From NCBI GenBank assembly GCA_964652765.1, contig CAZZBA010000001.1, forward strand, positions 1-52,755: a stretch of 52,755 nt of DNA. Direction: 5' to 3'. A model generated the notes under the pieces. It had not been told where the DNA came from. It ran no database searches and saw nothing but the letters and a program-made list of their open reading frames with translations. Shown here piece after piece: positions 5,545 to 47,319 of this stretch (position 1 is the first letter of the stretch; each line of letters begins with the position of its first letter). Both the position numbers and the translations under genes were made by a program. The DNA is from an uncultured Victivallales bacterium. GTDB lineage: Bacteria > Verrucomicrobiota > Kiritimatiellia > UBA8416.

Positions 5545-5548
5545 GAGG

Positions 5549-6405: not shown

Positions 6406-6434
6406 TTGACTTGGCAATCTGGATTCGGTATATG
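6406..6434 (+). promoter_or_regulatory. Candidate sigma70-like promoter for the sulfotransferase gene
   Basis: TTGACT (6406-6411), an exact 17-nt spacer, then TATATG (6429-6434), in an AT-rich divergent intergenic region about 65 nt upstream of the GTG start at 6499. Confidence 0.3.
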
Positions 6435-6498
6435 AACGACACATATTTTATTAATTATGTGAGTTCTGATTATTAAAATTATGTTAGGAGGACAAGGT

Positions 6499-7473: not shown

Positions 7474-7797
7474 AGGCTATTGAAGTGATTTATTTATTCG
7501 CGGGCGCATAGCACGTCTGCGGGGATATTCAAGACGGCAAGGCGTGAGCCTGTGCGTCGGCACGGGGCGATCGCTCGACGAGAACGGCGACGAGAGCACG
7601 CATTGCGCCAGGATAAAATGTTACCGAAGCAAAAATGAGAACGGCACAATGCGCCCTCATATTTTTCCTTGCAAGGGAATTGTTTCAAGTCTACAGTGGC
7701 AACTGTTTCGTAGCGTTTGTTGCTAGTCTGCTTATCTTTTAATGAACGCTAATTCCCTGCCATACTACTGGTTGGGTAATAAAAGAGGCATATAATC

Positions 7798-8889: not shown

Positions 8890-8911
8890 CACGGGAGAGC
8901 GCAGGCATATT

Positions 8912-11026: not shown

Positions 11027-11030
11027 GGAG

Positions 11031-13702: not shown

Positions 13703-13711
13703 GGTGTTTTT

Positions 13712-31100: not shown

Positions 31101-31779
31101 GCAGACCCATATCGTGAAAAAACGGCTGCCAAGAGACATGGATCAACGCATCGCCTTCAATGCCCGTGTTATCGATATACCAGGCGTTATGCAGTATGTT
31201 TCCGTGACTGACCATGACCCCGCGCGGCGCACCCGTAGACCCGGAGGTGTACTGCAAGACGGCCAGATCTTCCCGTTTCCACGACGGCTTAACCCAGAGT
31301 TCCGAGAGGTTGGGTAATGTGTCCGTCGCCAGGACATCGATATCGTTTCCCAGATACTCGACCAGCGCGTCTCGATATTCCTGAACGCAAAAGACGGCTT
31401 TTGGACGCGCGTCAGATGTGATCAGCTTCAAACGTTCGTCCTGCCGCCGCTTGCGCGGCGGGTACATGGGTACAGCCACGGCCCCGGCATAGAGGCAGCC
31501 TATGAAGCCGCGAATGAAATCGAGGCCCGGTGGATAGGAAAGGAGCACCCGTTCGCCGGCCATGCCTCGCTGCTGCAACCAGGCGGCAATTGAGCGGGCC
31601 TGGCGATCAAGCTGTGCGCAGGAAAGGCTGTCTCCCTCTTGTTCACCGTCCACGAGGAACGTGAAAAGGCGATTGTCAGGTGTTTGTCGTGCGTGCCACA
31701 GCAATTGCTCCGTAACGGAGTTCCCTGTAACTTGCGCCCAACGGCTCGCCGCGGTTCTCTCCTCGAAGGATAGGCTCAT
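16183..31779 (-). CDS. Hybrid fatty-acyl-AMP-ligase / type I PKS (2 modules) / NRPS (1 module) megasynthase with a C-terminal GNAT-like domain; 5,198 aa
   Basis: A single uninterrupted ORF. All core motifs were mapped by hand (see the domain features): FAAL-ACP-KS-AT-KR-ACP-KS-AT-KR-ACP-C-A-PCP-GNAT-like. I found no DH, ER, TE or R motifs. Confidence 0.95.
16186..17268 (-). other. Megasynthase domain: C-terminal tandem GNAT-fold-like (FemAB/CelD/N-acyl-synthase-like) acyltransferase domain, aa ~4838-5198
   Basis: It follows a Pro/Ser/Thr linker after the PCP. '[10 protein letters not shown]...[16 protein letters not shown]...[23 protein letters not shown]' resembles GNAT motif A. A second half reads '[33 protein letters not shown]...[38 protein letters not shown]...LRALGF'. 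There is no GxSxG (TE) and no Rossmann/YxxxK (R) motif. Confidence 0.5.
17350..17568 (-). other. Megasynthase domain: PCP (Ser4772)
   Basis: '[20 protein letters not shown]'. Confidence 0.85.
17605..19077 (-). other. Megasynthase domain: NRPS adenylation (A) domain, probably glycine-activating, aa ~4235-4725
   Basis: 'LSYRELMQR', '[15 protein letters not shown]', 'FDISNLEIF', 'NVYGPTETT', '[15 protein letters not shown]', 'YRTGDL', '[20 protein letters not shown]', and 'PNRKVDR'. The hand-aligned specificity positions 235/236/239/278/299/301 read D-I-L-Q-L-G. Confidence 0.8.
19165..20478 (-). other. Megasynthase domain: NRPS condensation (C) domain, aa ~3768-4205
   Basis: '[10 protein letters not shown]' and active-site '[10 protein letters not shown]' (HHxxxDG). 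Confidence 0.85.
20560..20817 (-). other. Megasynthase domain: ACP3 (Ser3700)
   Basis: '[19 protein letters not shown]'. Confidence 0.85.
20920..22182 (-). other. Megasynthase domain: KR2, aa ~3200-3620
   Basis: '[18 protein letters not shown]', '[10 protein letters not shown]' (no LDD), 'KVYGSWLL', and 'YAAANAYLD'. Confidence 0.8.
22525..23388 (-). other. Megasynthase domain: AT2 (malonyl-type), aa ~2798-3085
   Basis: '[14 protein letters not shown]', '[10 protein letters not shown]', and 'SHAFHS'. Confidence 0.8.
23716..24987 (-). other. Megasynthase domain: KS2, aa ~2265-2688
   Basis: '[14 protein letters not shown]', '[12 protein letters not shown]', '[14 protein letters not shown]', and '[15 protein letters not shown]'. 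Confidence 0.9.
25210..25458 (-). other. Megasynthase domain: ACP2 (Ser2151)
   Basis: '[19 protein letters not shown]'. Confidence 0.85.
25600..26898 (-). other. Megasynthase domain: KR1 (structural plus catalytic subdomains), aa ~1628-2060
   Basis: '[18 protein letters not shown]', '[10 protein letters not shown]' (no LDD), 'KAGGAWALH', and catalytic 'YSAANAFLD'. Confidence 0.8.
27145..28053 (-). other. Megasynthase domain: AT1 (malonyl-type), aa ~1243-1545
   Basis: '[14 protein letters not shown]', '[10 protein letters not shown]', and 'RAFHS'. The xAFH pattern, rather than YASH, argues for malonyl-CoA. Confidence 0.8.
28375..29655 (-). other. Megasynthase domain: KS1, aa ~709-1135
   Basis: '[14 protein letters not shown]', active-site '[12 protein letters not shown]', '[14 protein letters not shown]', and '[15 protein letters not shown]'. 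Confidence 0.9.
29716..29958 (-). other. Megasynthase domain: ACP1 (Ser646)
   Basis: '[20 protein letters not shown]'. Confidence 0.85.
30055..31707 (-). other. Megasynthase domain: FAAL (fatty acyl-AMP ligase) loading domain, aa ~25-575
   Basis: '[24 protein letters not shown]', 'YGMAETT', 'LRTGDIGF', '[20 protein letters not shown]', and 'KTSSGKIRR'. It is fused directly to an ACP, as in FadD32/Ols-type loaders. Confidence 0.85.
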
Positions 31780-31899
31780 TGGAATTCTCTACACCAATCA
31801 ATTCTTGTGTGTGATTAACTTTAGGTGTTACTTTGCTGGAAATAGGGTGTGGTGTCAACCCGGAACTGCCGGAAACAGCCCCCCCGCAGGAGTCGCATT

Positions 31900-32703
31900 A
31901 TGAGAACAGCGATCGGTACACAGGAAAACGTGCCGTCAGGTTTGGCTGGGCGGTTTCCCGGCAGCAACACGGGGGTGAATCTTCTGTGGTCTTCCGTCAA
32001 CGCCTACAGGCCATTGATGCCTAATGAAATCGATGTCTGGCGTGTGGATCTGGATATTTCGGATGCCCGGCGTGAACGTCTATTGTCCATTCTCTCGCCG
32101 GATGAAGCGGCCCGCGCCGCCCTTTACCGGTTTCCCGAGCTTGGACGGCGCTACATCGCCGGTCGTGGTGCGTTGCGCTGTATCCTGGGGCGCTGCCTGG
32201 GCATTGATCCGAAACGGGTCCGGTTTGATTATGAGGCAAATGGCAAGCCCATTTTGGCGAGCCCGCCAGCACCCTCCGGTGCGTTGTCCTTTAACATCAC
32301 CCATTCGCATGAATTGGCGCTGTGCGTCGTTACTCGGGAGCGTCGCATCGGCGTGGATGTTGAACACATGCTTCGAACGGTGGATATGGAGTCCATTGCG
32401 CAACGTTATTTTTCTCCTCATGAATATGCCGCGCTGCAGTCCGCGCCGCTGGTGCAGCGTCGCGCGCTGTTCTTTCGGTACTGGACCTGCAAGGAAGCCT
32501 GCATCAAGGCAACGGGCAAGGGATTATCCCAATTGGAAGACGTTGAGGTGGTGTTGAGTGGCGCCAGGCCTGGCCGATGGAAGTCATCAGGGCGGTGGCG
32601 GCTCTATGAGTTGTCCCCCAAGATGGATTTTGCGGCGGCCGTGGCGGCTGAGGGTTGTGATCATGTGCTGCGCGGTTGGCATTATGCCCACGTGCCGGAA
32701 TAA
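31900..32703 (+). CDS. Sfp-type 4'-phosphopantetheinyl transferase
   Basis: ATG 31900 lies 7 nt after AGGAG. Motifs: 'YEANGKPIL', 'FNITHSHELALCVV', 'IGVDVE', and 'FFRYWTCKEACIKATGKG' (W/FxxKEAxxK). It is divergent from the megasynthase. Confidence 0.85.
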   Translation: MRTAIGTQENVPSGLAGRFPGSNTGVNLLWSSVNAYRPLMPNEIDVWRVDLDISDARRERLLSILSPDEAARAALYRFPELGRRYIAGRGALRCILGRCLGIDPKRVRFDYEANGKPILASPPAPSGALSFNITHSHELALCVVTRERRIGVDVEHMLRTVDMESIAQRYFSPHEYAALQSAPLVQRRALFFRYWTCKEACIKATGKGLSQLEDVEVVLSGARPGRWKSSGRWRLYELSPKMDFAAAVAAEGCDHVLRGWHYAHVPE

Positions 32704-32894
32704 CCCGAAGCGGTCGCACATGCGCTGCACCAAGCGGCGACGATGGCGCTTCATGCCTCTGCTCACAGGCGGCGGATGAAAAATGTATCGACTGGACGGC
32801 TTGCAGTTTGTCATAGTTCCAGCATGGAACCTTGCATGCGGCATGGGGCCCGTCGCAAGGCGCGTGGGCTGGTGAGATCAATGAGGGGGAGGGT

Positions 32895-34034
32895 ATGCAG
32901 ATACAATTAGACGAGCGTCAGGAACGCATCGTAGCCGCCGCGCGCGCGTTTGCGAAAGATGAGCTCGCGCCGAACGCGGCGAAGCATGACGCGACGGGGA
33001 TTTTCCCGCGCGAGCTGATCGACCGCATGGCGCAACAGGGGTTTCTGGCTGCCACGCTGCCCGAGGCATACGGGGGGCTGGAACTCGATCCGCTTGCATA
33101 CGGCTTGCTTCTCGAGGCCATTGAACAGGGCGATTGCGCGGCCAGCCGGCTGGTGACCGTGCATCTGGCTCTGGCGGCACAGTCGATTCTGACGTATGGC
33201 AGCGCAGCGCAGCAGGCGCGCTGGCTCCCCGATATCGCCTCCGGCAAGACGATTTGCGCCTTTGCATTGACAGAGCCGGATCACGGTTCCGACGCCGCAG
33301 GCATCGAGTGCTCCTACGGTAGGGACGGTGACGGCTACGTCCTGCGAGGGCGAAAGCGTTGGATTTCCTTCTCCGGGGTGGCCGATCTGCTTGTGGTAAT
33401 CGCGCGCCAGGGGCCGACGGTTTCCGCATTCCTGGTGGAGACTGCCGCTGCGGGCGTGGCGCGGATTCCGCTGACGGGCCTGATGGCAGGGCGGGCCTGC
33501 CACATCTGTGAGATCGTATTGGATGGCGTGCGCGTGCCTCAGGACCAGATGCTGGGCGGCGAAGGCCAAGGTTTCACCTACATTGTTAACTCAGCGATGG
33601 ACCAAGGGCGTTATTCGATTGCCTGGAGCGGCGTGGGGCTGGCCGGTGCGGCACTGAATGCAATGGTGCGCTACGCCAAGAAACGGGAGCAGTTCGGCGT
33701 TAAACTGGCCCGTCACCAACTGATCCGCGGTATGATCGCCGATGGGGTGACGAACCTTTATGCCGCGCGCAGTCTTTGCCTGCGGGCGGCCCAATCCCGC
33801 AAGGAGGGCTCACAGGATGCGATCATCGAGTCCACGATTGCCAAGCAGTTTGCCGCCGGAACGGCCTTCCGCATCGCTGTCGATGCGGTGCAGGTGCATG
33901 GCGGCAACGGTTGCTGTGCTGACTATCCGGCCGAGCGCCTGATGCGCGAAGCCAAGGCGCTTGAGATTATCGAAGGTACCACGCAGATCCAGCAAATGAT
34001 GATTTCCTTGCACGGCCTGCGCCAGTTTGGTTAA
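32895..34034 (+). CDS. Acyl-CoA (or acyl-carrier-protein) dehydrogenase family flavoprotein
   Basis: ATG 32895 follows GGGGGAGGG. Motifs: 'CAFALTEPDHGSDAAG', 'KRWISFSG', 'QFGVKLARHQLI', and 'VHGGNGCCADYPAERLMREAKALEIIEGTTQIQ', which carries the C-terminal catalytic Glu context. Confidence 0.9.
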   Translation: MQIQLDERQERIVAAARAFAKDELAPNAAKHDATGIFPRELIDRMAQQGFLAATLPEAYGGLELDPLAYGLLLEAIEQGDCAASRLVTVHLALAAQSILTYGSAAQQARWLPDIASGKTICAFALTEPDHGSDAAGIECSYGRDGDGYVLRGRKRWISFSGVADLLVVIARQGPTVSAFLVETAAAGVARIPLTGLMAGRACHICEIVLDGVRVPQDQMLGGEGQGFTYIVNSAMDQGRYSIAWSGVGLAGAALNAMVRYAKKREQFGVKLARHQLIRGMIADGVTNLYAARSLCLRAAQSRKEGSQDAIIESTIAKQFAAGTAFRIAVDAVQVHGGNGCCADYPAERLMREAKALEIIEGTTQIQQMMISLHGLRQFG

Positions 34035-34098: not shown

Positions 34099-34920
34099 AT
34101 GAAGAATTATAAAGGAACACCCGATGAACTGGTCGCCAGCTTGTGGTGCCACCGGAATTTGATTCTTGCGTTGACGCGCCGGGACATTGCCGGGCGCTAC
34201 CGCGGGTCCTTGCTGGGCATCCTATGGTCATTTGTGAACCCGCTCCTGATGCTCGGTGTATACACGTTCGCCTTCGGTGTGATTTTCGGGGCGCGCTGGA
34301 CCGCAGGTTCGGATTCGAAGATGGAGTTCGCCATTATCCTCTTTGCCGGTATGCTTGTTTTTCAACTGTTTTCCGAGTGCGTGAATCGTGCGCCATCGCT
34401 GGTCCTCTCCAATCCGAGCTATGTCAAGAAAGTGGTTTTCCCCCTTGAAGTCCTGCCGATCGTGTCGCTGGGCTCGAGCCTGTTCCACATGCTGGTGAGT
34501 CTCTCGGTCTGGCTGCTGTTCTACTTCGTCGGATTTGGATTGCCCTCCCCGGCAATCCTGTTGCTGCCCGTTATGCTGCTGCCCCTGGTACTGTTTACAA
34601 TAGGCTTATCCTGGATGCTGGCCTCTTTCGGGGTTTACTTACGCGATGTGGGGCATATGGTTTCTTCGTTGACGCTGATGTTGTTGTTCCTTTCGGCCGT
34701 ATTCTATCCGATAGAATCCGTACCGGAAGCCCTGCGTACGCCTTTGACGGTGGCTAATCCACTGGTGTTCCATGTCGAAATATGCCGGCAAGTGATGGTT
34801 TGGGGTAAACTCCCGGCATGGGACTCATGGACGATCTACTTCGTTTTGAGTTTGGTGGTCGCTTGTCTGGGATTTGCCTGGTTCCAGAAGACGCGGAGGG
34901 GGTTCGCCGATGTCCTCTGA
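34099..34920 (+). CDS. wzm: ABC-2 type polysaccharide/O-antigen export permease
   Basis: ATG 34099 (MKNYKG...). 'RRDIAGRYRGSLLGILWSFVNPLLML' is the ABC-2 signature N-terminus, and there are 6 TM helices. Confidence 0.85.
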   Translation: MKNYKGTPDELVASLWCHRNLILALTRRDIAGRYRGSLLGILWSFVNPLLMLGVYTFAFGVIFGARWTAGSDSKMEFAIILFAGMLVFQLFSECVNRAPSLVLSNPSYVKKVVFPLEVLPIVSLGSSLFHMLVSLSVWLLFYFVGFGLPSPAILLLPVMLLPLVLFTIGLSWMLASFGVYLRDVGHMVSSLTLMLLFLSAVFYPIESVPEALRTPLTVANPLVFHVEICRQVMVWGKLPAWDSWTIYFVLSLVVACLGFAWFQKTRRGFADVL

Positions 34921-36265
34921 TATAGCCATCCAGGTCGAGAATCTTTCGAAGAGCTACCACATCTACGATCAGCCCCGCGACCGGTTGAAGCAGATGTTCT
35001 TCTGGGGGCGGCGGCAGTATTACCGTGAATTCTGGGCATTGAAAGATGTGTCTTTCGACGTGCGGCGCGGTGAGACGGTCGGGATTGTCGGGCGTAACGG
35101 CAGTGGAAAATCGACATTGCTACAGTTGATTTGCGGTACGCTAAACCCGACTGGCGGCCAGATAATGACCAACGGTCGCATTGCGGCGCTTCTGGAACTG
35201 GGAACCGGTTTCAATCCTGATTTCACGGGGCGTGAAAATGTCTACATGAACGCCGCTGTTTTAGGACTTTCCAAGGAAGAAATCGATGATCGGTTTGATG
35301 ACATTGCATCCTTTGCCGATATTGGTGACTTTATCGAGCAGCCGGTTAAGACTTACTCTAGCGGCATGGCGGTGCGCCTGGCTTTCGCCGTTCAAGCTGT
35401 GATTGATCCAGATATTTTCGTCGTCGATGAAGCCCTCGCTGTGGGTGATGAAAAATTCCAGCGGAAATGCTTCGCCCGTTTGGAGGACTTGAAGCGTAGA
35501 GGTTCATCAATTCTTTTTGTGTCGCATTCTCCGGCAAGTATCATTGAATTATGCGATAGGACCCTGCTTCTTGATCATGGTGAGCGACTCATGTACAGCT
35601 CAGCTCCACATGCCATACGTGCCTACCAAAAGCTGATTTACGCCCCCGATGAGGATGTGAAAAGATTAGTGCAGGAATACCGTGCCGCCGATCAGTTTGG
35701 GGGAAGTATAGCATCCGAATGGGGTGATAACACAGCAAGCTTAAGTCAAGGCGAATCAACGATTGTTTCCAATGACCCCGCTGTACCTACTTTTGACCCG
35801 GGCCTTTTGCCTGAGACCACCACGGTTTATCCAGCGCAGGGCGCTGAAATTGATTCGATACAGATACTCGACGCCAAGGGGCATGTTGTCAACGTATTGC
35901 AACCTGGGGGAAACTACCAGTTTGTAGTGTCAGGTCGCTTTTTGAACAGCTTTGCCGGGATCTTTTTTGGTATCCATATAAAATCCATTTCCGGTCTGGT
36001 AATTACCGGGCAGCGTTATCCGGAAGAGGGAAAATTCATTGAACTGGATAGTGCCGGGAAATCCTTCAAGATCAGCTTCGGTTTCAGGATGGATGTTCTG
36101 CCGGGTGTCTATTTCGTTGGCGGTGGCATCTGGTCGTCTCAGGAACCAAACTGCGTCCACCGTATTTTGGATGCGATCATGTTTCGCGTTGTTCCGATAA
36201 GTCGTCCTATTTCCTTTGGATATGCGGATATGTCAACAAGGGCACCAAATGTCGAATTATTCTAA
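34910..36265 (+). CDS. wzt: Polysaccharide/O-antigen ABC exporter ATP-binding protein with a C-terminal carbohydrate-binding-like (Wzt_C-type) domain
   Basis: ATG 34910 overlaps the end of wzm by 11 nt. Walker A 'GIVGRNGSGKST', signature 'YSSGMAVRLAFA', Walker B 'IFVVDEALAVGD'. An extra beta-rich domain of about 190 aa is present ('IQILDAKGHVVNVLQPGGNYQFVVSGRF...FGFRMDVLPGVYFVGGGIW'). Confidence 0.9.
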   Translation: MSSDIAIQVENLSKSYHIYDQPRDRLKQMFFWGRRQYYREFWALKDVSFDVRRGETVGIVGRNGSGKSTLLQLICGTLNPTGGQIMTNGRIAALLELGTGFNPDFTGRENVYMNAAVLGLSKEEIDDRFDDIASFADIGDFIEQPVKTYSSGMAVRLAFAVQAVIDPDIFVVDEALAVGDEKFQRKCFARLEDLKRRGSSILFVSHSPASIIELCDRTLLLDHGERLMYSSAPHAIRAYQKLIYAPDEDVKRLVQEYRAADQFGGSIASEWGDNTASLSQGESTIVSNDPAVPTFDPGLLPETTTVYPAQGAEIDSIQILDAKGHVVNVLQPGGNYQFVVSGRFLNSFAGIFFGIHIKSISGLVITGQRYPEEGKFIELDSAGKSFKISFGFRMDVLPGVYFVGGGIWSSQEPNCVHRILDAIMFRVVPISRPISFGYADMSTRAPNVELF

Positions 36266-38012
36266 ATCTCTTTCTGCCACAAAACTGGGAATTCTCAAGG
36301 CGTGCTTTGATCGCACGGAGGGTATGGTGGGTTTTGACGAGGCTATACTGCTCTACCATCTCGCGAAAGAGGTGGATAGTGGGTGTATCGTAGAAATCGG
36401 TTCCTACCGGGGTAGGTCATCGGTATTCCTGGGCAAGGGTTCACTTGATGGAGTAAATGCACCAGTCTATGCGATAGATCCGCATAGGAGCTTCATCGGT
36501 GTTCTGGGTGGAGAGTTCGGTCCAAAAGATCGTACTGCATTCTATCGAGCCATGCTCGATAACGAATGCAGCGAGATCGTCTCGCTGATTAATTCGAGCA
36601 GCGAGTGCTTATCCCCATTATGGAGCGAGCCGATTTCGCTCTTGTGGATTGACGGAGATCATAGCTACGATGGGGTAAAGAAGGATCTCAACTGTTGGTT
36701 GCCGCATTTATCCCCCAATGCCAAGATTGCGTTTGATGACGCAACTGACCCAGAGCTTGGACCCCGTAAGCTTATTGATGAACTGATTTTGTCGAAGCGA
36801 TTTGAGATCGTCATGAACGTTGGTAAAGTCGTTGTCTTGCGGGGCAATGTCAAAGGTGAATTTGATAAGATACCTGTGGCAGATGTTCATGATAGGCCAT
36901 TGTTGGATAAAGAAAAATCATTTGAATACGTCCGCTACAACAGCTACCGTTCGGAGCGATACAAACTCTTTTATGTTGCTACGCCGAAAGTTGCCTGCAC
37001 TTCCTTGAAATGGTGGTTTGCAGACTTGGAAGGGTGCTCGCAGGTTTTGCGCGGTCTTGTTGACAGCATTGAGACTGACCCGGAGCTGGTTATCCACGAC
37101 ACCTTCCACAGGGTGGCGCCAAATGTGACCCACTTGACGCCGGAAACGATCGCAGAGGTACTCGCTTCGGATTCATATTTTCGTTTCGCAGTAGTCCGCA
37201 ATCCGTACAAGCGGATATTCTCAGCGTGGCAATCGAAGTTACTCTTAAGAGAGCCCTACCAGATAAGGCCTTATCTCCACTACGATTTCTTCAATCACCC
37301 GATTATATGTGCGGATGATATCGCGTCGGCATTTGAAGGGTTTCTTGAGCATCTCGCAACCAATGAGGCACCCTCTTATTGGGATGTACACTGGACCCCG
37401 CAAGTAGACCTGCTTCGCCCCGATCTGATCAACTATTCAAAGCTGGTCAAAATCGAGAATGCGAATGAGCTTAGCCAGGCACTAGCGGTTCGGCTCGGTG
37501 GTCATATTCCGGATCCTTTTGCAGACCGACGCATAAATGAAAGTCTGATTCCGTATCTGCCCGAGTTCGTTTCGCAACGAAGTGCGGAGTTGATTCGTTT
37601 GCTGTATGCCAAGGATTTTGTGACTTTCGGATATGACGAACAACCGCCAGCGACAAAGGAAACGTACTCTACTGATCAGCTCAATCTCGCAATCAAGGCC
37701 ATTCCGCTCATTCGTGGGCGAAACCAGCGGCTGGGTGATCTTAATAAGCGCATAGTCAGCCTCAATGAAGCCATGGCTGCGCAGGCCGGCGAGATTGATC
37801 GGCAGGTCAGCGAGATTGATCGGCAGGCTGGCGAGATTGATCGGCAGGCCGGCGAGATTGCGCGGCTTGAGTTAACAATCCTTGAAAGGGATAATGAGCT
37901 TGTTTCCATTCACTTGAGCGGTTCCTGGAAAATAACCAGACCGCTAAGGCAGTTATATCGTATTCTGCAAAGAATGAAGGGTGCCCCAGATGCTGATATT
38001 GAGACTATCTAG
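36249..38012 (+). CDS. Tri-partite SAM-methyltransferase / sulfotransferase / coiled-coil protein (WbdD-like chain terminator or ruler candidate)
   Basis: ATG 36249 overlaps the end of wzt by 17 nt. Methyltransf_24-like 'GCIVEIGSYRGRSSVFL...LLWIDGDHSYDGVKKD...IAFDD'. Sulfotransfer_2-like 'FYVATPKVACTSLKWWF' (5'-PSB) and 'FAVVRNPYKRIFSAWQSK' (3'-PB). A heptad-repeat coiled coil is followed by 'SGSWKITRPLRQLYRIL'. Confidence 0.75.
   Translation: MSNYSKSLSATKLGILKACFDRTEGMVGFDEAILLYHLAKEVDSGCIVEIGSYRGRSSVFLGKGSLDGVNAPVYAIDPHRSFIGVLGGEFGPKDRTAFYRAMLDNECSEIVSLINSSSECLSPLWSEPISLLWIDGDHSYDGVKKDLNCWLPHLSPNAKIAFDDATDPELGPRKLIDELILSKRFEIVMNVGKVVVLRGNVKGEFDKIPVADVHDRPLLDKEKSFEYVRYNSYRSERYKLFYVATPKVACTSLKWWFADLEGCSQVLRGLVDSIETDPELVIHDTFHRVAPNVTHLTPETIAEVLASDSYFRFAVVRNPYKRIFSAWQSKLLLREPYQIRPYLHYDFFNHPIICADDIASAFEGFLEHLATNEAPSYWDVHWTPQVDLLRPDLINYSKLVKIENANELSQALAVRLGGHIPDPFADRRINESLIPYLPEFVSQRSAELIRLLYAKDFVTFGYDEQPPATKETYSTDQLNLAIKAIPLIRGRNQRLGDLNKRIVSLNEAMAAQAGEIDRQVSEIDRQAGEIDRQAGEIARLELTILERDNELVSIHLSGSWKITRPLRQLYRILQRMKGAPDADIETI
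37782..37865 (+). repeat. Four tandem copies of a 21-bp unit (CAGGCCGGCGAGATTGATCGG and variants) encoding the heptads QAGEIDR/QVSEIDR/QAGEIDR/QAGEIAR
   Basis: Read directly from the sequence. Units occupy 37782-37802, 37803-37823, 37824-37844 and 37845-37865, in frame within the coiled-coil segment of the 36249-38012 CDS. Confidence 0.95.
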
Positions 38013-41000
38013 GTTATATCGTTTACTCCGAAAAAGTGGGTATTTTGATGATCGGTATTACCTGTTGAGTAATCCAGAAGTTCGCAAGGCCGATATTGAT
38101 GCATTGTCGCATTATATATCCCATGGTTGGCGCGAAGGTCGCAATCCTAGTGCATTTTTTGATGTAAGCGGTTATTTGGAAAAATATCCTGATGTAAGGG
38201 ATGCAGGCATTGAACCATTGTTCCATTACCTTTGTTTCGGCATGGAAGAGGGCCGCAATTCATGCAAGGATCAAAATGAAATAGTACATGGCAAGAAGCA
38301 TTTCAAAGACGATGTACACGTTAGTGAGAAAAGAATGATTAGTGGTCGCCTATCCGGAGCAACACGAGGAACCGTTGCATATTCGCGGAAAATGCTCCAA
38401 CTGTTTTATATGGCGATCAAGAATCCCTCATTGTTGGTTTACGTATGCGAGAAGCTTAAAGCCAATGGATATAAGTCGACTATAAATGAAATTTTAGGAA
38501 TCTTGAACAAAAGTACACCTTGTCCGCGGCAAGAATATGAAAATGCCGCGAAATATTGCCTTATCGTTCAGACGATTGATGGTTATTTCAAGAAGCACAC
38601 GCGTGGTCATCCTCAAGAGCAAAACAACATTTTATTAATATCGCATGACCTCATACGCGCTGGGGCTCCTTTGCTGCTCCTCAATATTGCAAAACACCTG
38701 AGAGAAGTAGGGGAAAAGAATATTTTGATAATTAGCCTTGTTGATGGAGAGCTCCGAGGTGAATTTGAAAAATACTGCACAGTTTTGTGCCTGAATCAAA
38801 GTAACCGATGGACAATTGAGAATGCTTCACTCGTTGATTGCATATTCAGGAAGCTTTCAGATAATGGTGTCAACAAGGCAATCGGCAACACTACCGGTAG
38901 CGCATTGTTTGTCCCATATCTAGAAAAATGTGGTTTTGTCTATCAAATACTGATACATGAAATGCCGGAGACAGTTGAGTTCATGGGCTGGGACAAGACA
39001 GCAGCACTGCGCTTATCTGAGATAGCAAGCGGAAGGGCGGTCTACTCATCAGAATATGTCTTAGGAAAGCACAGGCAATTGTATGCTTTGCCGTATAATG
39101 TTGAAGTAATACCGCAGGGCATGTTCCAAGTACAGCGTAAGCAAAGAAACGCGGAATCGAGAGCCGATCTTCTGTCAAGGTACAAGCTTCCAAAAAACGC
39201 AAGACTCATATTGCATGGTGGTAAAGACCTTGTGAGAAAGGGCTTGGATCTCTTTGTCGATATTGCGTTTCATGTGTCCTCGCTCCAGAAGAACATCTAC
39301 TTTGTTTATTTGTGTGACAAATATGAGCTGACTACGCACAAAGAATTGGTAAAGAAAATCGCTGACAGTGCCAACATCATTATAGACAATTTCACGAGTG
39401 ATTATGGGTTATATCTTGAAGGCTCGGATCTTTATGCTTTAACAAGCCGCGCGGATCCATTCCCGAACACTGTGCTCGATGCTTTATCGCATGGATTGCC
39501 GGTTATTGCATTTGATGAATGTGGCGGTGCACCTGAGCTGCTTAGGCAAATAGATGATTGCCTCGTTGCAAAGAGACAGGACGTACAGGATTTTGCCCGG
39601 AAAGTATCTTTCCTTCTGGATAATCCAAGTAAATACAAGGAGATATCGGGAAAATCAATTGACATAATTCGGCGAGATTACCGCTTTGAAAAATATGTGG
39701 ACAGGTTACAGTCGTTTTTTGATGCCCACTCTTTGCATAAAGTGTCAGTAATTGTTCCTAACTATGATTTCAGCGAATTCCTGCCCGAAAGACTTCATTC
39801 CATTATCAATCAGACATTGATGCCATATGAGATAATTTTCCTTGATGATAAATCCTCTGATGACAGTTGCCTGATTGCTGAAGGCATTCTCGCTGACTCG
39901 CGCATAAAGTATAAGATCGTGAAAAACGATTCGAATCAAGGTGTCCTCAAGCAGTGGCAGAAGGGCATCGAAATGGCTGAAGGTGAGCTAGTATGGATTG
40001 CTGATGCAGCCGATTATTGCGATCGCAATCTGTTGATGACGCTGGTCCCTCGTTTTGGTGATCCCGATATTTCGCTTGCCTATTGTCACGCGCGCCTGGT
40101 CGATGCCGATGGGGTTTCGATTAATGATGATGGCGTACTCCTTCATGCTAATGATATTGATGATTTACGGTGGCGGCATTCTTTTGTCTGCAAAGGAACT
40201 CACGAGATTTATCGTGGATTCTTGTATAGAAATTTAATAAGCAACTCCGGAGTCTGTGTATTCAGAAGAAACTCATGTGCCGGAGATATGCTAGAACAGT
40301 TGAAAAATTATAAATACGTCGGAGATTGGTTTCTTTATGCAAGCTTGATGTCCTCTGGTAAAATATTCCACTCGCACAAAGTTCTCGCCAGCTTTCGCCG
40401 TCACCAAAAGGCGATTACAACCAAAAGCATGAATTCGAATGAATATGTTCGTGAAGTCATGGCGGTTATTGAAATGATGATGAAAACGCATAAGGTGTCG
40501 GAAAGGAGCTTTGAAAAAATACGGTTTCATCTAAAAAAAGATCATAATATCGAGCTAGAACAATATGGTGAAGATTTAGCCAGGCTTTTGGCGAATATGC
40601 AAGAAGTGGCAACAATTCTGTTTGTATCGACAAATCCATGTGCTCAGGAGGGCGGAGGCTCTGACGTTCTTTGGTATGAAGCAGCAAAAACATTATCGAT
40701 CCAAAACTATCCCCTGTTTTTAAATGTTTATAAGCGTTCAAACATGCCGCATAGGGTTGGTGTATTGCGAAATATCGGAGTGACTATTTCTTATTACGAG
40801 GAAACAGGGCTTAGTATATTAGACGAGATCGGTGTAGATTTAGTTATCATTATACAGGGGGATGAGAGGGAAGGCTCTGATTGGTGTGAAACATGCAAAA
40901 ACAAAAAGATTCCTTATGTTATCGTAAATCAATTAACGAGACCCGATGTTGAGATCAATTCAAATGTCAAAGAGGGTTATCTTAATGCTAGCAAGGTTTT

Positions 41001-41667
41001 TTTCACCTGCGAGAATAACCGTTTATTAATGCAGGAAAAGATCGGACGTGAGCTCGGAAATGCTGAGCGCCACTATAATCCAGTCGCCGGCATCGAGCGC
41101 GGAGCCATCATGCCATTTCCTGAAGTAATCGGCAATCGATACTATTTGGCATGTCCTGCTAGGTTAATGGTGATTCACAAAGGGCAAGATTTGCTGTTTG
41201 AGGTCCTCAAGCAAGACAAATGGAAAGATCGCCAATTGCATATTAATCTTTACGGCGACGGTCCGGATAAAGAAATGTTACAGGAAATGAAAAAGACTCG
41301 CGCTGTGGATAATGTCGTGTTTTGCGGTTACGAGCGTGATGTGTGTGAAATTTGGAAGAGGAATCATGGTATCATTATGCCCAGCCGTATGGAGGGTGTG
41401 CCGATTGTATTGCTGGGCGCTATGTTTTGTGGACGCGTCCCCATCTTGACCGATGTTGGAGGGCACCGTGAACTGGTTCAGGATGGTGTGGCGGGTTTTA
41501 TTGCAAATGCACCAACTGTGGAGGATGTCGATGCTGCCCTGGAACGTGCATGGCGGCAGAGGGCAAATTGGTCGGAGATCGGCAGGAAAGCTCGCGAGGC
41601 GGTTTTGGCTTTCCAGTCCGAGGATCCTGTGAAGGATTTTGTCGACAAGATTTTGGGACAAGTATGA
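37990..41667 (+). CDS. Multidomain glycosyltransferase (GT4-like, GT2, GT4), polymerase-like
   Basis: ATG 37990 (track start GTG 37981) overlaps the preceding stop.
- The N-terminus has two copies of an 'NPxV...HY..xGxxEGRNP'-type motif.
- GT4-like region at ~38620-39720 ('TSRADPFPNTVLDALSHGLPVIAFDECGGAPELL').
- GT2 at ~39742-40440 ('VSVIVPNYDFSEFLPERLHSIINQTLMPYEIIFLDDKSSDDS').
- C-terminal GT4 at ~41160-41660 ('MPSRMEGVPIVLLGAMFCGRVPILTDVGGHRELVQDGVAGF'). Confidence 0.8.
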   Translation: MLILRLSRLYRLLRKSGYFDDRYYLLSNPEVRKADIDALSHYISHGWREGRNPSAFFDVSGYLEKYPDVRDAGIEPLFHYLCFGMEEGRNSCKDQNEIVHGKKHFKDDVHVSEKRMISGRLSGATRGTVAYSRKMLQLFYMAIKNPSLLVYVCEKLKANGYKSTINEILGILNKSTPCPRQEYENAAKYCLIVQTIDGYFKKHTRGHPQEQNNILLISHDLIRAGAPLLLLNIAKHLREVGEKNILIISLVDGELRGEFEKYCTVLCLNQSNRWTIENASLVDCIFRKLSDNGVNKAIGNTTGSALFVPYLEKCGFVYQILIHEMPETVEFMGWDKTAALRLSEIASGRAVYSSEYVLGKHRQLYALPYNVEVIPQGMFQVQRKQRNAESRADLLSRYKLPKNARLILHGGKDLVRKGLDLFVDIAFHVSSLQKNIYFVYLCDKYELTTHKELVKKIADSANIIIDNFTSDYGLYLEGSDLYALTSRADPFPNTVLDALSHGLPVIAFDECGGAPELLRQIDDCLVAKRQDVQDFARKVSFLLDNPSKYKEISGKSIDIIRRDYRFEKYVDRLQSFFDAHSLHKVSVIVPNYDFSEFLPERLHSIINQTLMPYEIIFLDDKSSDDSCLIAEGILADSRIKYKIVKNDSNQGVLKQWQKGIEMAEGELVWIADAADYCDRNLLMTLVPRFGDPDISLAYCHARLVDADGVSINDDGVLLHANDIDDLRWRHSFVCKGTHEIYRGFLYRNLISNSGVCVFRRNSCAGDMLEQLKNYKYVGDWFLYASLMSSGKIFHSHKVLASFRRHQKAITTKSMNSNEYVREVMAVIEMMMKTHKVSERSFEKIRFHLKKDHNIELEQYGEDLARLLANMQEVATILFVSTNPCAQEGGGSDVLWYEAAKTLSIQNYPLFLNVYKRSNMPHRVGVLRNIGVTISYYEETGLSILDEIGVDLVIIIQGDEREGSDWCETCKNKKIPYVIVNQLTRPDVEINSNVKEGYLNASKVFFTCENNRLLMQEKIGRELGNAERHYNPVAGIERGAIMPFPEVIGNRYYLACPARLMVIHKGQDLLFEVLKQDKWKDRQLHINLYGDGPDKEMLQEMKKTRAVDNVVFCGYERDVCEIWKRNHGIIMPSRMEGVPIVLLGAMFCGRVPILTDVGGHRELVQDGVAGFIANAPTVEDVDAALERAWRQRANWSEIGRKAREAVLAFQSEDPVKDFVDKILGQV

Positions 41668-41790
41668 TGGGGATTTTCGAGACATTCGCATTGGATATGA
41701 GCGGTCAGGTATTAGTGGATAACCTGTTGGCATTATTGCATCAAGCAAGTTCCGGTGCATTATTGCAGGGCTGATCAGGAGCGTTGACAA

Positions 41791-42711
41791 ATGAAAATAG
41801 CAGTTTTTGGTGGTGGAGGATTTATTGGGTCAGCGGTGGTTGACCGTCTATTGAAAGATGGTCATACAATTCGGATATTTGAGCGTCCCAGGGTAGTCCC
41901 GTACCGGCGTTTCTCTGCGACCGAAGGCGTGGAATGGGTTACCGGTGATTTGATGAGCAATCATGACGTGGCTCATGTTCTTGATGGCATCGACATTGTC
42001 GTTCACCTTGTGTCAACAACGTTGCCGGGAAGCTCTAATGATGACCCCGTATATGATGTTCAGACTAATGTTGTGTCAACGATTCAAATGCTACAGGCAA
42101 TGGTGGCAAGGAAAGTGGGGAAAATCGTTTTCATATCTTCCGGCGGCACCATATATGGGAAGCCGGTTGCATTGCCTATCAACGAGGATCATCCCACAAA
42201 TCCACTCGTTTCCTATGGCATAACCAAGCTTGCGGTTGAGAAATACATTTTGATGTTTCAGCACCTTTATGGGATCAAGGCTCGCATATTGAGAGTGGCC
42301 AATCCGTATGGTGTGCGGCAGCGAGTGGATACAGGGCAGGGCGTGGTCACGGCTTTTGTCAGCAAGGCGTTGAGGGACGAGTCGATTGAAGTGTGGGGTG
42401 ATGGGCGTGTTGTCAGGGATTACCTTTACATTGACGACCTTGCCGAGGCTTTTGCTCGTGCAGTATATTACGATGGTTCACATTCCGTCTTTAATATCGG
42501 TTCAGGAGTGGGGACGGACATCAATTCCCTGCTGGACGCGATTGAAAGCGTTCTTGAGCGGCCCGTTTCGCGACATTACAAGCCCGGCCGGGCCTTTGAT
42601 GTGCCTTCCAATGTACTTGATATAACACGTGCTGGCAAAGAGCTTGACTGGCAACCGGGAGTGCCGCTCCTGCAAGGTATGGAAATCATGCTTAAAAGGC
42701 GAACGTCGTGA
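41791..42711 (+). CDS. NAD-dependent sugar-nucleotide epimerase/dehydratase (extended SDR, GalE-like)
   Basis: 'MKIAVFGGGGFIGSAVV' (GxxGxxG) and catalytic 'YGITKLAVE' (YxxxK). AGGAG lies 9 nt upstream. Confidence 0.9.
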   Translation: MKIAVFGGGGFIGSAVVDRLLKDGHTIRIFERPRVVPYRRFSATEGVEWVTGDLMSNHDVAHVLDGIDIVVHLVSTTLPGSSNDDPVYDVQTNVVSTIQMLQAMVARKVGKIVFISSGGTIYGKPVALPINEDHPTNPLVSYGITKLAVEKYILMFQHLYGIKARILRVANPYGVRQRVDTGQGVVTAFVSKALRDESIEVWGDGRVVRDYLYIDDLAEAFARAVYYDGSHSVFNIGSGVGTDINSLLDAIESVLERPVSRHYKPGRAFDVPSNVLDITRAGKELDWQPGVPLLQGMEIMLKRRTS

Positions 42712-42724: not shown

Positions 42725-44938
42725 GTGAAAAAACACAAACTTATAACAATTATCCCCCCCCTTCTGATCCTTTGCTGGCTTCTGTATTTGGGAGTCATGA
42801 TTTGGTGGCGCGCCCATATTAGTGTACAGCCACCGATTTATGATCCTCTCTCTTATATGCAAAAAGCTATTAATTTCTGGGATGCATTGTCGAATGGGCA
42901 GTTATTTAATCCCTTCAATCTTCAACCTACCGTGCGGCCTCCCGGTACTATTTTGATGTCATACCCTTTCGGATTCACCCATGATTTCAGAGGGTACCAT
43001 TTTCGCTCGGTGTTTCTACCAATACTTTGTATTGTGGGGGCTGTTTACATTGTTGCCGGCGCTCATGCTTGCTGTAAAAAGGGCAACGAATGGTGGACGG
43101 CTGCCATCGCTCTATTATTCTCATCACTCCCCATGTATTATCATTTTGATTGGTTTCAGGATCCGGTAAGCCCGACTCGCTGGGGCCTTGTAGATAATTT
43201 TCATGCCGGTGTCGCCGCATTGGCTATGGCGGCATTTCTTCGAAGCGTCTTCGCAAAATCATTGAAGTGGTTGTTTTTGGCGGTTTTGCTTTCTTCCTTT
43301 ACTCTTATAATCAAGCCCTCCGGTATCGCGGTTATGGGGCTGGCATCAATGGCATGGGTAATTGTTATTATGTTTGAATGGATTCACCTTTTTAAGAGCA
43401 AATCCCCCAAGCGAGATGTGCAAAAATATTTTATATTTGGTAGCATCATTACAGGTATAACATATTGTATAACTATAACTATTTGCGTTCTATCTCAATA
43501 TTTATCTAAGCATAATATTTCTTATGCACATGAAGCTTTGGCGGTAATGCGAAAAGTACTACTCTTTAGCTGCTATGAGCTGTTCCAGATGTTTTACAAG
43601 AGTGCAGGGCCCGCTTTGCTGTTATGGATTACCTTGGTGTTCATTCTGCTATATCGCCGCCTTCCAAGTGGCGAACCACAGGCTTGTAGGCATAGGGCTC
43701 AGGCCTCGGGTTTGCTGATCGGTAGCGCGGTTATTTGGACCGCAGGTTTATGGTACATGATCGTTGTACAAGCCGGTGGCAGTAGTCAGATAAGATATTT
43801 TTATCCTTTTATGCTCATGGGGGCGATTTGCGTTACCCCTGTCGCTTTTATGGCATGGGATCAAACAAGTCGTTTGTTGCGTTTGTGGTTGGTGGTCTTG
43901 TGCGGACTGCCAGCTTTAAATATAAGTGCTCTTCTGGCAACTGGAAATACGCCACCAATGTCCTGGCAGAGAATGTCCGGTGTTAATGTAAGCGTCGGGC
44001 AGGATCGCAAGATTGTTGAACAAGCGCAGGCGTTCCTCCAGAATGTCCAGAGCAATGGAGAGAACGTTCAGGTTTATTCATTTAACAGCAGGTTGCCGTC
44101 GCAAATATTTGAAAGCGTCGGTATGTATGAGGAATATGCTCGCACTGGTCTGCCAACTTTTACAACTAAAATACCGACTGATTGGGTCAACGGGTTCGTG
44201 GTGCGCACGGGGGAAATATTAGAAAGCGATTATATTCTGATTAATAGATATCCCGACTATAGTTATGATCCGCAACATATGTTAGGCCAGCATTATGATG
44301 CATATGAATCTGAAGTTAGGGCTTTTGAAATTTGGGCCTCACACTTGGAACGAGACGCGGGTGTCGAAACCGTTTCTGACAGCAATGATTTGCGGCTATT
44401 GAAGATTGCCGACCGAAAGGCATTTAACCAAGCTATTGAGAAGTTTGTCGCGGCCAACACTTGGCGTCCGGAATTCTCGGCAGCCAACCCACCCACCTGG
44501 TGGAGCCCGGATGCTGTTTTAGCTTATGCAAAGATGCCAGCTTTGACTGAAATTAACTTTGATGACATCTTCAAGATTCATGCGCTTTCAATCAGCCGCG
44601 TTCCCTCCGGATTAAAGGTTGAAGTCTGGTGGCAGGAACTGCGTCAGAATGCAGTAAAGAATAAATCGCTGATTTTCCTTCATATGCTTGATGTGGATGG
44701 CAATTGCATTGTTTTGTCGCAAATATTGCTATGCTCGTCTCAGCCTTTGTGCGATGAACGTCCACTCCGCTATGGTCAGGCTATGCTTCCTCTTTCCCCA
44801 CTGGCGCATGCGCTGGCGTTTGGTGTTTGTGAACCGGGAGGTGCGTTTCTTCTTCCGGACAAAGGCATGACGGACTGGGGTGGGCGGCGTGTGGTGATTC
44901 CTCTTGCAGGTCCTGCAACAGGTACTAAACATGATTAG
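42725..44938 (+). CDS. Polytopic membrane protein, GT-C-like (ArnT/PMT-type) glycosyltransferase candidate with a C-terminal beta-rich soluble domain
   Basis: GTG 42725 follows GGTGGGAG. There are about 11-13 TM helices in the first ~430 aa. The first extracytoplasmic loop contains 'PPIYDPLSYMQKA', an acidic-residue loop as in GT-C enzymes. The C-terminal ~330 aa are soluble. The fold assignment is tentative. Confidence 0.45.
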   Translation: MKKHKLITIIPPLLILCWLLYLGVMIWWRAHISVQPPIYDPLSYMQKAINFWDALSNGQLFNPFNLQPTVRPPGTILMSYPFGFTHDFRGYHFRSVFLPILCIVGAVYIVAGAHACCKKGNEWWTAAIALLFSSLPMYYHFDWFQDPVSPTRWGLVDNFHAGVAALAMAAFLRSVFAKSLKWLFLAVLLSSFTLIIKPSGIAVMGLASMAWVIVIMFEWIHLFKSKSPKRDVQKYFIFGSIITGITYCITITICVLSQYLSKHNISYAHEALAVMRKVLLFSCYELFQMFYKSAGPALLLWITLVFILLYRRLPSGEPQACRHRAQASGLLIGSAVIWTAGLWYMIVVQAGGSSQIRYFYPFMLMGAICVTPVAFMAWDQTSRLLRLWLVVLCGLPALNISALLATGNTPPMSWQRMSGVNVSVGQDRKIVEQAQAFLQNVQSNGENVQVYSFNSRLPSQIFESVGMYEEYARTGLPTFTTKIPTDWVNGFVVRTGEILESDYILINRYPDYSYDPQHMLGQHYDAYESEVRAFEIWASHLERDAGVETVSDSNDLRLLKIADRKAFNQAIEKFVAANTWRPEFSAANPPTWWSPDAVLAYAKMPALTEINFDDIFKIHALSISRVPSGLKVEVWWQELRQNAVKNKSLIFLHMLDVDGNCIVLSQILLCSSQPLCDERPLRYGQAMLPLSPLAHALAFGVCEPGGAFLLPDKGMTDWGGRRVVIPLAGPATGTKHD

Positions 44939-44959
44939 AGAATTATGGGGGGTATTTGA

Positions 44960-46417: not shown

Positions 46418-46433
46418 GGAACAGGAGCGGTTA

Positions 46434-47204
46434 ATGTCTTGGCTAGCGCATCCCTTGACGTCCGGACTGGATGTTGATGATCCAGAAACGACGATACGTC
46501 GACGGATGATTATTAAACAAAAACGATATTTGTATAAACTCTATTGTGAATGGTATGAACTCATAGAGGCAGCCTTACCGGATGTTGCAGGAGATATCCT
46601 TGAGCTAGGCTCTGGGGCAGGCTTTCTGAAGGAGCGGATGCCTGATGTCATAACAACAGAAGTTTTACCTTTGCCTGGGATTGATGTAACGATCCCGACA
46701 GATGGAACCCTGCCTTTCGAGTCATCGTCACTGCGCGCGATTGTCATGACAGACGTGTTGCACCATATTCCTTGCCCGCGTACGTTTTTCCGGGAATCAT
46801 CTCGGTGTATTTGTCCTGGCGGCGCGATTATTATGATTGAACCATGGATAACAGGTTGGTCACGTTTCATATATACGCATTTGCATAGTGAACCATTTCG
46901 TCCGGAAGCTACAGAATGGGAGTTTCCTGTGCAGGGGCCGCTGTCCGGTGCGAATGGTGCATTGCCCTGGATTATGTTCGAACGCGATCGCGAGAAATTC
47001 GAAAAAGAGTTCCCCGAGTGGAGCATTCGCAAAATAGAACCGATGATGCCCTTCTCCTATCTGCTTTCCGGTGGGGTATCTTGTCGCTTTTCGGCAACTG
47101 GTTGGTCATATCAACCTATCCGTAGGCTGGAGACGATGTTTAAATTATTAGATAATCGGCTTGCTATGTTTGCGCTGATCGTCCTTCATAAAAACCAAGC
47201 ATAA
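46434..47204 (+). CDS. Class I SAM-dependent methyltransferase
   Basis: ATG 46434 lies 6 nt after AGGAG (46423-46427). Motif I 'DILELGSGAGFLKERM' and post-I 'IVMTDVLHHIP'. Confidence 0.75.
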   Translation: MSWLAHPLTSGLDVDDPETTIRRRMIIKQKRYLYKLYCEWYELIEAALPDVAGDILELGSGAGFLKERMPDVITTEVLPLPGIDVTIPTDGTLPFESSSLRAIVMTDVLHHIPCPRTFFRESSRCICPGGAIIMIEPWITGWSRFIYTHLHSEPFRPEATEWEFPVQGPLSGANGALPWIMFERDREKFEKEFPEWSIRKIEPMMPFSYLLSGGVSCRFSATGWSYQPIRRLETMFKLLDNRLAMFALIVLHKNQA

Positions 47205-47319
47205 TGGCACGGCGTGCTTCTTGTGGCTTTGACAACTTGGTCGGATAAATATTCTGATAGCATGGGATTCGGGTTCGGGAGGCTTTCAGGCACCCTGTTC
47301 ATTGTTGATTGAGTGGATT

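Follow-up and report, generated by a model that had tools for sequence, protein, structure and literature searches.

Terminal caps that control chain length and license export are central to the assembly of O-antigens, capsule-like glycans and S-layer glycans that depend on ABC transporters. The caps described so far are methyl, (methyl)phosphate and Kdo only (PMC9445017, PMC11231755). The WzmWzt transporter of Aquifex aeolicus recognizes a 3-O-methyl-Man/Rha cap (PMC9445017), and a beta-Kdo terminator occupies the head position of WbbB from Klebsiella pneumoniae (PMC11231755). Here we analyzed a stretch of 52,755 nucleotides from an uncultured Victivallales bacterium (contig CAZZBA010000001.1 of assembly GCA_964652765.1; the whole stretch is referred to below as the window) and identified, on its forward strand, a glycan assembly locus whose predicted terminator protein carries a sulfotransferase (ST) domain on a coiled coil. 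Comparison of this locus with its relatives points to a cap that would contain sulfate. In the literature we found no link of sulfotransferases with WbdD, terminators or Wzt caps, although an earlier bioinformatic prediction may exist (2019 census by Mann, Kimber & Whitfield); the one exception was an unexplained 'Hyp' ORF in Aeromonas salmonicida (PMC4483657).

The core of the locus consists of four consecutive genes. The first, wzm (34099-34920; ATG at 34099, TGA at 34920), encodes the ABC-2 permease of a glycan exporter (Pfam ABC2_membrane, 2.6e-24), and wzt (34910-36265; ATG at 34910) encodes the nucleotide-binding subunit (ABC_tran, 1.9e-24) with a C-terminal carbohydrate-binding module (CBM). 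These are followed by the gene for the 587-aa terminator (36249-38012; ATG at 36249, with a second in-frame ATG possible at 36222) and the gene for a 1225-aa polymerase (37990-41667; ATG at 37990, with GTG 37981 as an alternative start). Gene bounds were taken from the DNA itself, and the same starts are used in the public gene calls of the complete 52,755-bp contig; the overlaps of 11 nt (wzm/wzt), 17 nt (wzt/terminator) and 23 nt (terminator/polymerase) given in an earlier note on this DNA match both exactly. Unlike in WbbB, terminator and polymerase are not joined in one polypeptide but encoded separately, in different reading frames. The extra C-terminal domain that the same note had seen on Wzt was identified as Wzt_C (PF14524; 3e-21, 76 bits versus a cutoff of 30, ORF residues 319-453), and the polymerase was confirmed by Pfam as a single three-domain glycosyltransferase (GT) with the order GT4 (~216-576), GT2 (587-713) and GT4 (1056-1203). 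Because Wzm and Wzt, a CBM on Wzt, a coiled-coil terminator and a multi-module polymerase are all present, the cluster almost certainly encodes a capped, terminator-controlled glycan pathway dependent on an ABC transporter.

The terminator had been read as a fusion of a methyltransferase, a Sulfotransfer_2-type domain and a coiled coil, and each part was recovered. Profile searches along the lines proposed in the earlier note found Wzt_C in Wzt and both Methyltransf_24 and Sulfotransfer_2 in the terminator, and the AlphaFold2 model, for which 121 homologues were used (mean pLDDT 89.6), revealed a Rossmann methyltransferase at residues 1-200, a disordered linker at 203-209, the ST at 215-470, a long helix at 475-556 and a last helix at 558-576. 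The Methyltransf_24 domain (aa 1-~204, 36249-36860; Pfam 3.7e-19) has conserved DGDH and FDDA metal motifs. The best Foldseek matches to residues 1-200 were M. hassiacum MeT1 (6g7d/6g80, E 1e-10), SpnH and MycF, all metal-dependent sugar O-methyltransferases, with E values from 1e-10 to 6e-7 and a target TM of ~0.7.

The Sulfotransfer_2 domain (PF03567; aa 215-474, 36891-37670) was detected at 6e-24, with a score of 86 bits versus a cutoff of 22 and coverage of profile positions 5-252 of 252. Both motifs quoted previously were present, PKVACTSL at residues 246-253 and RNPYKRIFSAW at 317-327. Across the 121 homologues K247, in the TPKVACTS loop, was nearly invariant (≥90% conserved), and R317, P319, R322, S325 and H283 were invariant. 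The signature of PF03567 for binding 3'-phosphoadenosine 5'-phosphosulfate (PAPS) combines a lysine in the 5'-phosphosulfate loop with a PxxRxxS motif for the 3'-phosphate (PMC11625862), and we call the signature of the terminator intact because its conserved residues match it. A Foldseek search with the whole protein was dominated by the methyltransferase domain, and the ST was hence searched as a domain-only model (pLDDT 92). All 50 top PDB matches of this model were PAPS sulfotransferases, including heparan-sulfate 2-O-sulfotransferase, and all were weak. A sequence search of the PDB with the ST family gave no sulfotransferase match: the profile of the 121 homologues, compared with all PDB sequences (E ≤ 1), returned only MeT1, through the methyltransferase domain, and unrelated coiled coils. 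No NCBIfam model matched the terminator. The ST is predicted to be a PAPS-dependent sulfotransferase acting on a sugar.

The terminator is no isolated case and belongs to a widespread family. A word-indexed search returned 312 relatives, and an exhaustive search of 1.84 billion representatives gave 133 clusters with E ≤ 1e-30 and 625 with E ≤ 1e-10; the family comprises no fewer than 133 clusters at the 50% identity level. When one genome was scanned per species, 74 ST loci were obtained, 61 of them with an ST at least 37% identical to that of the window, and the best matches in this collection were 59-64% identical to the window terminator. Cultured carriers occur among Pseudomonas (frederiksbergensis, viridiflava, mandelii, nitroreducens and panipatensis), Aeromonas, rhizobia (Rhizobium, Mesorhizobium and Bradyrhizobium diazoefficiens) and Paraburkholderia, with strains such as P. 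frederiksbergensis 36C6, P. viridiflava ICMP 2848, P. nitroreducens TX1, B. diazoefficiens SZCCT0423 and Paraburkholderia phenoliruptrix HU18; further carriers are Rhodanobacter, Gallionella, Desulfobulbus, Chloroflexi and Planctomycetes. In all 74 genome loci the ST begins no more than ~35 residues from the N-terminus, unless a Methyltransf_24 domain precedes it. In many relatives (Pseudomonas, Bradyrhizobium, Gallionella, Planctomycetes) it heads a protein of 1200-1800 aa, in which the ST is followed by a coiled-coil region and then by two to three GT modules (WbsX, GT2, GT4, RgpF). The window has the split form of this ST-coil-GT design, and the same split is found in a 90%-identical relative. 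The N-terminus of the polymerase (37990-38500) contains repeated motifs of the form YYLxxNP(D/E)V...P..HY...G..EGR.P, and these motifs recur at the C-terminus of a longer homologue (P0003), just after its coil and SWR motif; their presence in both proteins fits a derivation of the split and fused forms from one another.

Analysis of gene neighborhoods revealed a close association of the ST with CBM-bearing transporters. In all five metagenome loci of homologues that were inspected, wzm and a Wzt_C-bearing wzt adjoin the ST gene, and in 38 of the 61 genome loci a wzt with Wzt_C ends no more than 2.7 kb upstream of the ST on the same strand. Orthologues (45-66% identity) of the GalE-like, NAD-dependent sugar 4-epimerase encoded after the polymerase in the window (41791-42711; Pfam Epimerase, 4e-50; nearest solved relatives, UDP-glucose 4-epimerases 4zrm/7ys8) are encoded downstream of the ST in most of the genome loci, which gives a conserved unit of wzm, wzt with CBM, an optional methyltransferase and the ST, with the epimerase further downstream. 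Two groups are arranged differently: in the Pseudomonas mandelii group (L041-L048) and in Planctomycetes (L059-L066), no CBM-bearing wzt stands before the ST-coil-GT giants, which measure 1550-1660 aa. The wzm and wzt genes of the former are on the opposite strand at a distance of 7-9 kb and have no detectable CBM, and for the latter the surrounding 10 kb yielded no wzm or wzt. A transporter without a CBM, or a CBM encoded elsewhere, may thus serve some ST terminators.

The CBM itself provided a second line of evidence. The CBM part of wzt (35786-36262) falls into a sulfotransferase-linked clade, as judged from its identity to CBMs encoded upstream of ST genes and from a clade tree: ST-linked CBMs of Pseudomonadota, Desulfobulbia, Chloroflexi and Planctomycetes share 46-78% identity with it, whereas phmmer matched it to none of the solved Wzt CBMs at a limit as loose as E ≤ 10. 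The association was also examined in reverse by scanning metagenome contigs with the CBM alone, which gave 42 loci with at least 2.5 kb of downstream sequence. A Sulfotransfer_2-type ST followed wzt in 30 of these loci and a Sulfotransfer_3/1-type domain took the same position in nine. Some sulfotransferase was thus found in 39 of 42 (37 at or above Pfam cutoffs, one sub-threshold and one by jackhmmer only), and none was found in L107, L108 and L148. The 12 loci without Sulfotransfer_2 make up one subclade plus the outgroup on the CBM tree, which is an unbootstrapped neighbor-joining (NJ) tree. Because these 12 loci keep all invariant CBM residues, an 'ST-less CBM subclade' would have spoken against a tie of the CBM clade to sulfation; the Sulfotransfer_3 domains that Pfam detected there turn this inference around. 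In L140 and L128 the Sulfotransfer_3/1 domain forms the N-terminal head of RgpF-WbsX-GT2 giants, and in the other loci of this type it is part of proteins of 330-700 aa. Coiled-coil signals follow the domain in L160, which is among the 12, and in L152 and L157, which have short flanks and lie outside the 42. That two unrelated ST families were recruited to one and the same position next to this CBM clade argues more strongly than any other observation for sulfate in the ligand of the CBM. Two further proteins were recorded in this survey. In L148 (3613-8196) a giant GT protein has DUF4915 (PF16261) and no sulfotransferase in the head position, and in L159 (6549-10301) a head of ~500 aa without a Pfam match, in which jackhmmer gave a weak Sulfotransfer_3 signal, is followed by an SWRxTxPIR motif. 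Both may be further terminator heads.

In the window the ST is fused to a methyltransferase, and methyl is an established cap (PMC9445017), as in E. coli O8 or Aquifex. The Methyltransf_24 domain could O-methylate the terminal sugar and the CBM could read this methyl group, with the ST decorating the chain internally or terminally without providing an export signal. The position of the methyltransferase at the extreme N-terminus, the sugar O-methyltransferases among its closest structures, the additional methyltransferases encoded downstream in the window and the presence of a Methyltransf_24 gene or domain between wzt and the ST in ~10 of 31 full-length ST+CBM loci all fit a methyl cap. However, in 15 of the same 31 loci a methyltransferase-like ORF is missing from the surrounding 10 kb, and no methyltransferase domain was found in the six ST-coil-GT giants scanned. 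On the CBM tree, moreover, systems with both Methyltransf_24 and ST are interspersed among ST-only systems and form no lineage of their own, and the CBM clade tracks a sulfotransferase of either family, not the methyltransferase. We consider methyl as the actual export signal to be unlikely. Since the methyltransferase is absent from half of the loci and from the giants, and since the combined systems are scattered in the tree, sulfate is the common denominator and thus the candidate cap shared by the ST+CBM loci on this comparative evidence. In the subtype represented by the window an O-methyl group is probably added too.

The same comparison bears on a cap in which the two groups are joined. 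In a methyl-sulfate diester the ST would take the role of the kinase and the methyltransferase would methylate the sulfate, giving an analogue of the methyl-phosphate of E. coli O9a and K. pneumoniae O3; the order methyltransferase, ST, coil would then mirror the order methyltransferase, kinase, coil of O9a WbdD (PMC3482155, PMC11231755), and roughly one locus in three has Methyltransf_24 and ST side by side or in one protein. Against this, the nearest structures of the methyltransferase domain methylate sugar hydroxyls and not acid groups, and ST-only systems with the same CBM clade are common. Alkyl sulfate diesters are also reactive alkylating agents, and we know of no biological precedent for them on glycans. 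We regard a diester cap as highly improbable.

The coiled coil that follows the ST (aa 475-556, 37671-37916) was modeled as one continuous 82-residue helix with pLDDT 93-98. Its GEIDRQA heptads are encoded by a 21-nt tandem repeat present in 3.8 copies (37781-37860; Tandem Repeats Finder score 139, 89% matches). The coil of the 90%-identical homologue is one heptad shorter, and indels among close relatives of the window terminator measure exactly 7 and 35 aa; slippage of the repeat could change this spacer, or ruler, by whole heptads. Ruler length was measured in 51 non-redundant homologues as the spacing from an RG(R/K)xxR motif at the end of the ST to a W(R/K)x(T/S)xxLR motif; a first version of the anchor patterns had captured 28 proteins and a stricter one 7, compared with 51 for the version used. 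The spacing ranged from 29 to 237 aa. Taken modulo 7, it fell into class 1 in 23 proteins and class 5 in 15 (together 38/51; chi-square p = 8e-11, a value that is indicative only since the sequences share ancestry), and no signal was observed in the 51 homologues modulo 5, 6, 8, 9 or 10. Spacing quantized in heptads looks like the mark of a coiled-coil spacer of evolving length. The coil is followed by a cationic amphipathic helix (aa 558-576, 37920-37976), which is separate in the model and starts with an SW(K/R)xTxPLR motif conserved across the family. The hydrophobic moment of this helix (residues 558-578) is 0.78, and the motif and helix together are a candidate docking element for the membrane or the polymerase. 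By analogy with a molecular ruler, the length of the coil would set the length of the chain.

Genes for the supply of PAPS were also found near the ST. An adenosine-5'-phosphosulfate (APS) kinase gene, cysC or cysNC, lies within 10 kb in 16 of the 61 genome loci, and in L003, L024 and L084 it sits between wzm and wzt. These embedded genes indirectly support the predicted transfer of sulfate from PAPS to a sugar acceptor. The Aeromonas veronii cluster runs rmlBDAC, GT2, wzm, wzt with CBM, ST, GTs and epimerase, and ends with a CysD-like gene. In several loci (L003:7452-7997, L031, L039, L090, L094, L095 and L145) a small Sulfotransfer_4-type gene (~181 aa) stands between wzt and the Sulfotransfer_2 terminator, and those clusters thus encode two different sulfotransferases. 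The product could alternatively be a generally sulfated, polyanionic polymer, in which an ST held on a coil scaffold near the polymerase sulfates along the chain, the CBM reads the sulfated repeat and length is set otherwise. The APS-kinase genes dedicated to many of the loci point to a high demand for PAPS, and the second small gene after wzt, together with another sulfotransferase in a Wzy-type cluster of the window's own organism, would be in keeping with such a product. Yet placement of the ST at the distal end of a heptad-varying spacer of 29-237 aa is hard to square with action on every repeat beside the polymerase, and in the fusion proteins the coil parts the ST from the GT modules, just as it does the terminating GT99 in WbbB (PMC11231755). 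Sulfation along the whole chain therefore appears to us quite improbable, although less so than the diester.

Taken together, we propose that the region at 34099-42711, with decoration genes extending to ~48963, would serve the ABC-transporter-dependent assembly of a capped glycan (the "polymerase-terminator" type). In the cytoplasm, the GT4-GT2-GT4 polymerase would lengthen a polyprenol-linked chain. The C-terminal amphipathic helix and the SWKxTxPLR motif would keep the 587-aa terminator near the membrane and the polymerase, with its catalytic head at the distal end of the ~80-residue coiled coil. When the chain is long enough to touch the head, the PAPS-dependent Sulfotransfer_2 domain would O-sulfate the non-reducing terminal sugar and the fused MeT1/SpnH-like O-methyltransferase would add a methyl group. 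Sulfation and methylation would block further extension, and the Wzt CBM would recognize the sulfated end and thereby license export through Wzm/Wzt. On balance, we judge this full mechanism, with a terminal sulfate cap read by the CBM, to be probable. Sulfate as a cap, or as part of one, had been suggested in the earlier note, and comparative genomics backs it strongly, if indirectly, through the head position of the ST, the heptad-quantized ruler length, the APS-kinase genes and the CBM clade; the terminal site of sulfation, the arrest of the polymerase by it and the reading of sulfate by the CBM we infer from architecture and co-occurrence. With slightly less confidence, we lean towards a general form of the proposal, in which a widespread class of terminators would cap the non-reducing end with sulfate from PAPS, having been assembled at least twice (with Sulfotransfer_2 and with Sulfotransfer_3) on coiled-coil rulers that evolve by heptads. 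A dedicated clade of Wzt CBMs would read the cap, and the class would extend from cultivable Pseudomonas, Aeromonas, rhizobia and Paraburkholderia to many uncultured lineages.

Several observations weigh against a sulfate cap. The matches of the ST domain-only model to solved sulfotransferases are weak (E 0.016-0.5, TM 0.3-0.4), and no PAPS-synthesis gene is present within the window. The organism presumably makes PAPS, because a second sulfotransferase is present in its Wzy-type cluster. The invariant residues of the CBM are the same in the subclades linked to Sulfotransfer_2 and to Sulfotransfer_3 and are not by themselves tied to sulfate, and the loci compared are phylogenetically non-independent, as well as being placed on an NJ tree without bootstrap values. 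Since a methyltransferase precedes the ST in this particular fusion protein, export here could be signaled by a methyl cap alone. Sulfate, terminal or otherwise, has been demonstrated in no glycan of any carrier of the module, and the O-antigen of Aeromonas salmonicida A450, the sole relative with published chemistry, is without sulfate (PMC4483657). The ST ORF of A450 has only 216 aa, is followed by a Kdo-type WbbB and is probably a remnant; because it is such a fragment, the chemistry of this strain says little either way.

If the proposed mechanism is correct, sulfate would be the fourth chemistry of an export-licensing cap after methyl, methyl-phosphate and Kdo, and the CBM would have a new specificity, that of an anion-reading jelly-roll. 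It would also place a negative epitope at the outermost tip of the lipopolysaccharide, the first point of contact for antibodies, phages and host lectins. The presence of the module in cultivable plant-associated and aquatic bacteria makes the prediction directly testable, and the molecular-ruler model could be examined on the naturally occurring coil lengths, which span 29-237 aa in heptad steps. A portable pair of terminator and transporter that adds one defined sulfate per chain would, if the proposal holds, be useful in glycoengineering.

The genes downstream of the epimerase look like a periplasmic side-branch or decoration set for the same glycan (42725-48963, forward strand). The first encodes a polytopic membrane protein of ~737 aa (42725-44938) whose start is uncertain, with a GTG at 42725 right after the epimerase stop. 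A hydropathy scan indicated ~9 transmembrane (TM) segments and a 330-aa soluble domain, and no Pfam or NCBIfam match was obtained; the protein looks GT-C-like and is a candidate for periplasmic decoration. It is followed by a protein that combines a methyltransferase with a GT2 resembling polyprenyl-phosphate hexose synthases (44960-46417; Pfam, with NCBIfam matches to AglJ and dolichyl-phosphate-hexose transferase that were both under cutoff), a class I methyltransferase (46389-47204; Pfam Methyltransf_11, 1e-6) and a membrane O-acyltransferase of the Acyltransferase_3 family (47302-48963; Pfam 3.2e-24, 8 TM segments). The G+C content drops from ~0.61 to 0.42-0.52 in the cluster, and a scan for promoters and terminators showed nothing enriched relative to shuffles.

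Positions 1-16139 of the window hold another glycan cluster, which belongs to the Wzx/Wzy type. It includes an initiating Bac_transf gene (5549-6313, minus strand), GT2 and GT4 genes, a polysaccharide deacetylase, a Wza-like exporter (7798-8889), a Wzy_C protein (11031-12560) and a MurJ-like flippase (14547-16139). A Sulfotransfer_3/1 gene also belongs to it (6481-7473) and lies where G+C is low, so that two different sulfated glycans may be made by the organism. Wedged between both clusters (16183-34034) is a set comprising a 5198-aa hybrid polyketide synthase/nonribosomal peptide synthetase (PKS/NRPS) on the minus strand, with the domain order FAAL-ACP-KS-AT-KR-ACP-KS-AT-KR-ACP-C-A, and beside it a PPTase (31849-32703) and an acyl-CoA dehydrogenase (32832-34034). 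L001, the 90%-identical relative, lacks this set between its two glycan clusters, which are direct neighbors there.

Compared with known systems, the locus resembles in layout the WbdA-WbdD-Wzt systems of O9a and O3, with which it shares a separate terminator and polymerase, a multi-module GT polymerase, a CBM on Wzt and a tightly coupled operon. The terminator and WbdD are also alike in their N-terminal catalytic head, coiled coil and C-terminal amphipathic region. In contrast to WbdD, the window protein has no kinase domain but a predicted PAPS sulfotransferase instead, and its methyltransferase is of the Methyltransf_24 type represented by MeT1, SpnH and MycF. The family profile found no WbdD entry in the PDB (E ≤ 1), and Pfam detected only Methyltransf_24 and Sulfotransfer_2. 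Because it lacks the kinase domain, has a methyltransferase of a different family and shares no detectable sequence similarity with WbdD, the terminator is, as judged from these comparisons, not a member of the WbdD family but analogous to it; the label 'WbdD-like' given previously holds for the layout and not for homology. The CBM likewise has no detectable similarity to that of O9a, and the predicted cap would be sulfate, with or without methyl, in place of methyl-phosphate. For the nucleotide-binding domain (NBD) of Wzt the closest solved structure is that of Aquifex aeolicus Wzt (8dku/7k2t, E 6e-72), and in both proteins the CBM is fused to the NBD; the likeness ends at the NBD, as the CBM of the window belongs to the separate, sulfotransferase-linked clade.

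The methyltransferase domain has the metal-dependent class I fold in common with MeT1, SpnH and MycF, but those enzymes are stand-alone, act on small oligosaccharides or macrolide sugars and are fused neither to an ST nor to a coil. PAPS-dependent sulfation of surface glycoconjugates would likewise link the predicted ST to the rhizobial enzymes NodH, LpsS and KpsS (the last from Mesorhizobium loti) and to the enzymes that act on sulfated capsules and exopolysaccharides; of these, KpsS acts on polysaccharide and NodH is a Sulfotransfer_3 protein (PMC11625862). As far as is reported, the rhizobial, capsule and exopolysaccharide enzymes act on internal or lipid-linked residues, and they have neither a coil nor a CBM-Wzt partner. 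The closest parallel to the fused relatives is K. pneumoniae O12 WbbB, which combines a GT99 beta-Kdo terminator, a coil and two polymerizing GTs: many relatives of the ST have the same single-protein layout and are encoded right after a CBM-bearing wzt. They differ from WbbB in having a sulfotransferase and not a glycosyltransferase at the head, and the Victivallales locus differs further in splitting this layout into two overlapping genes.

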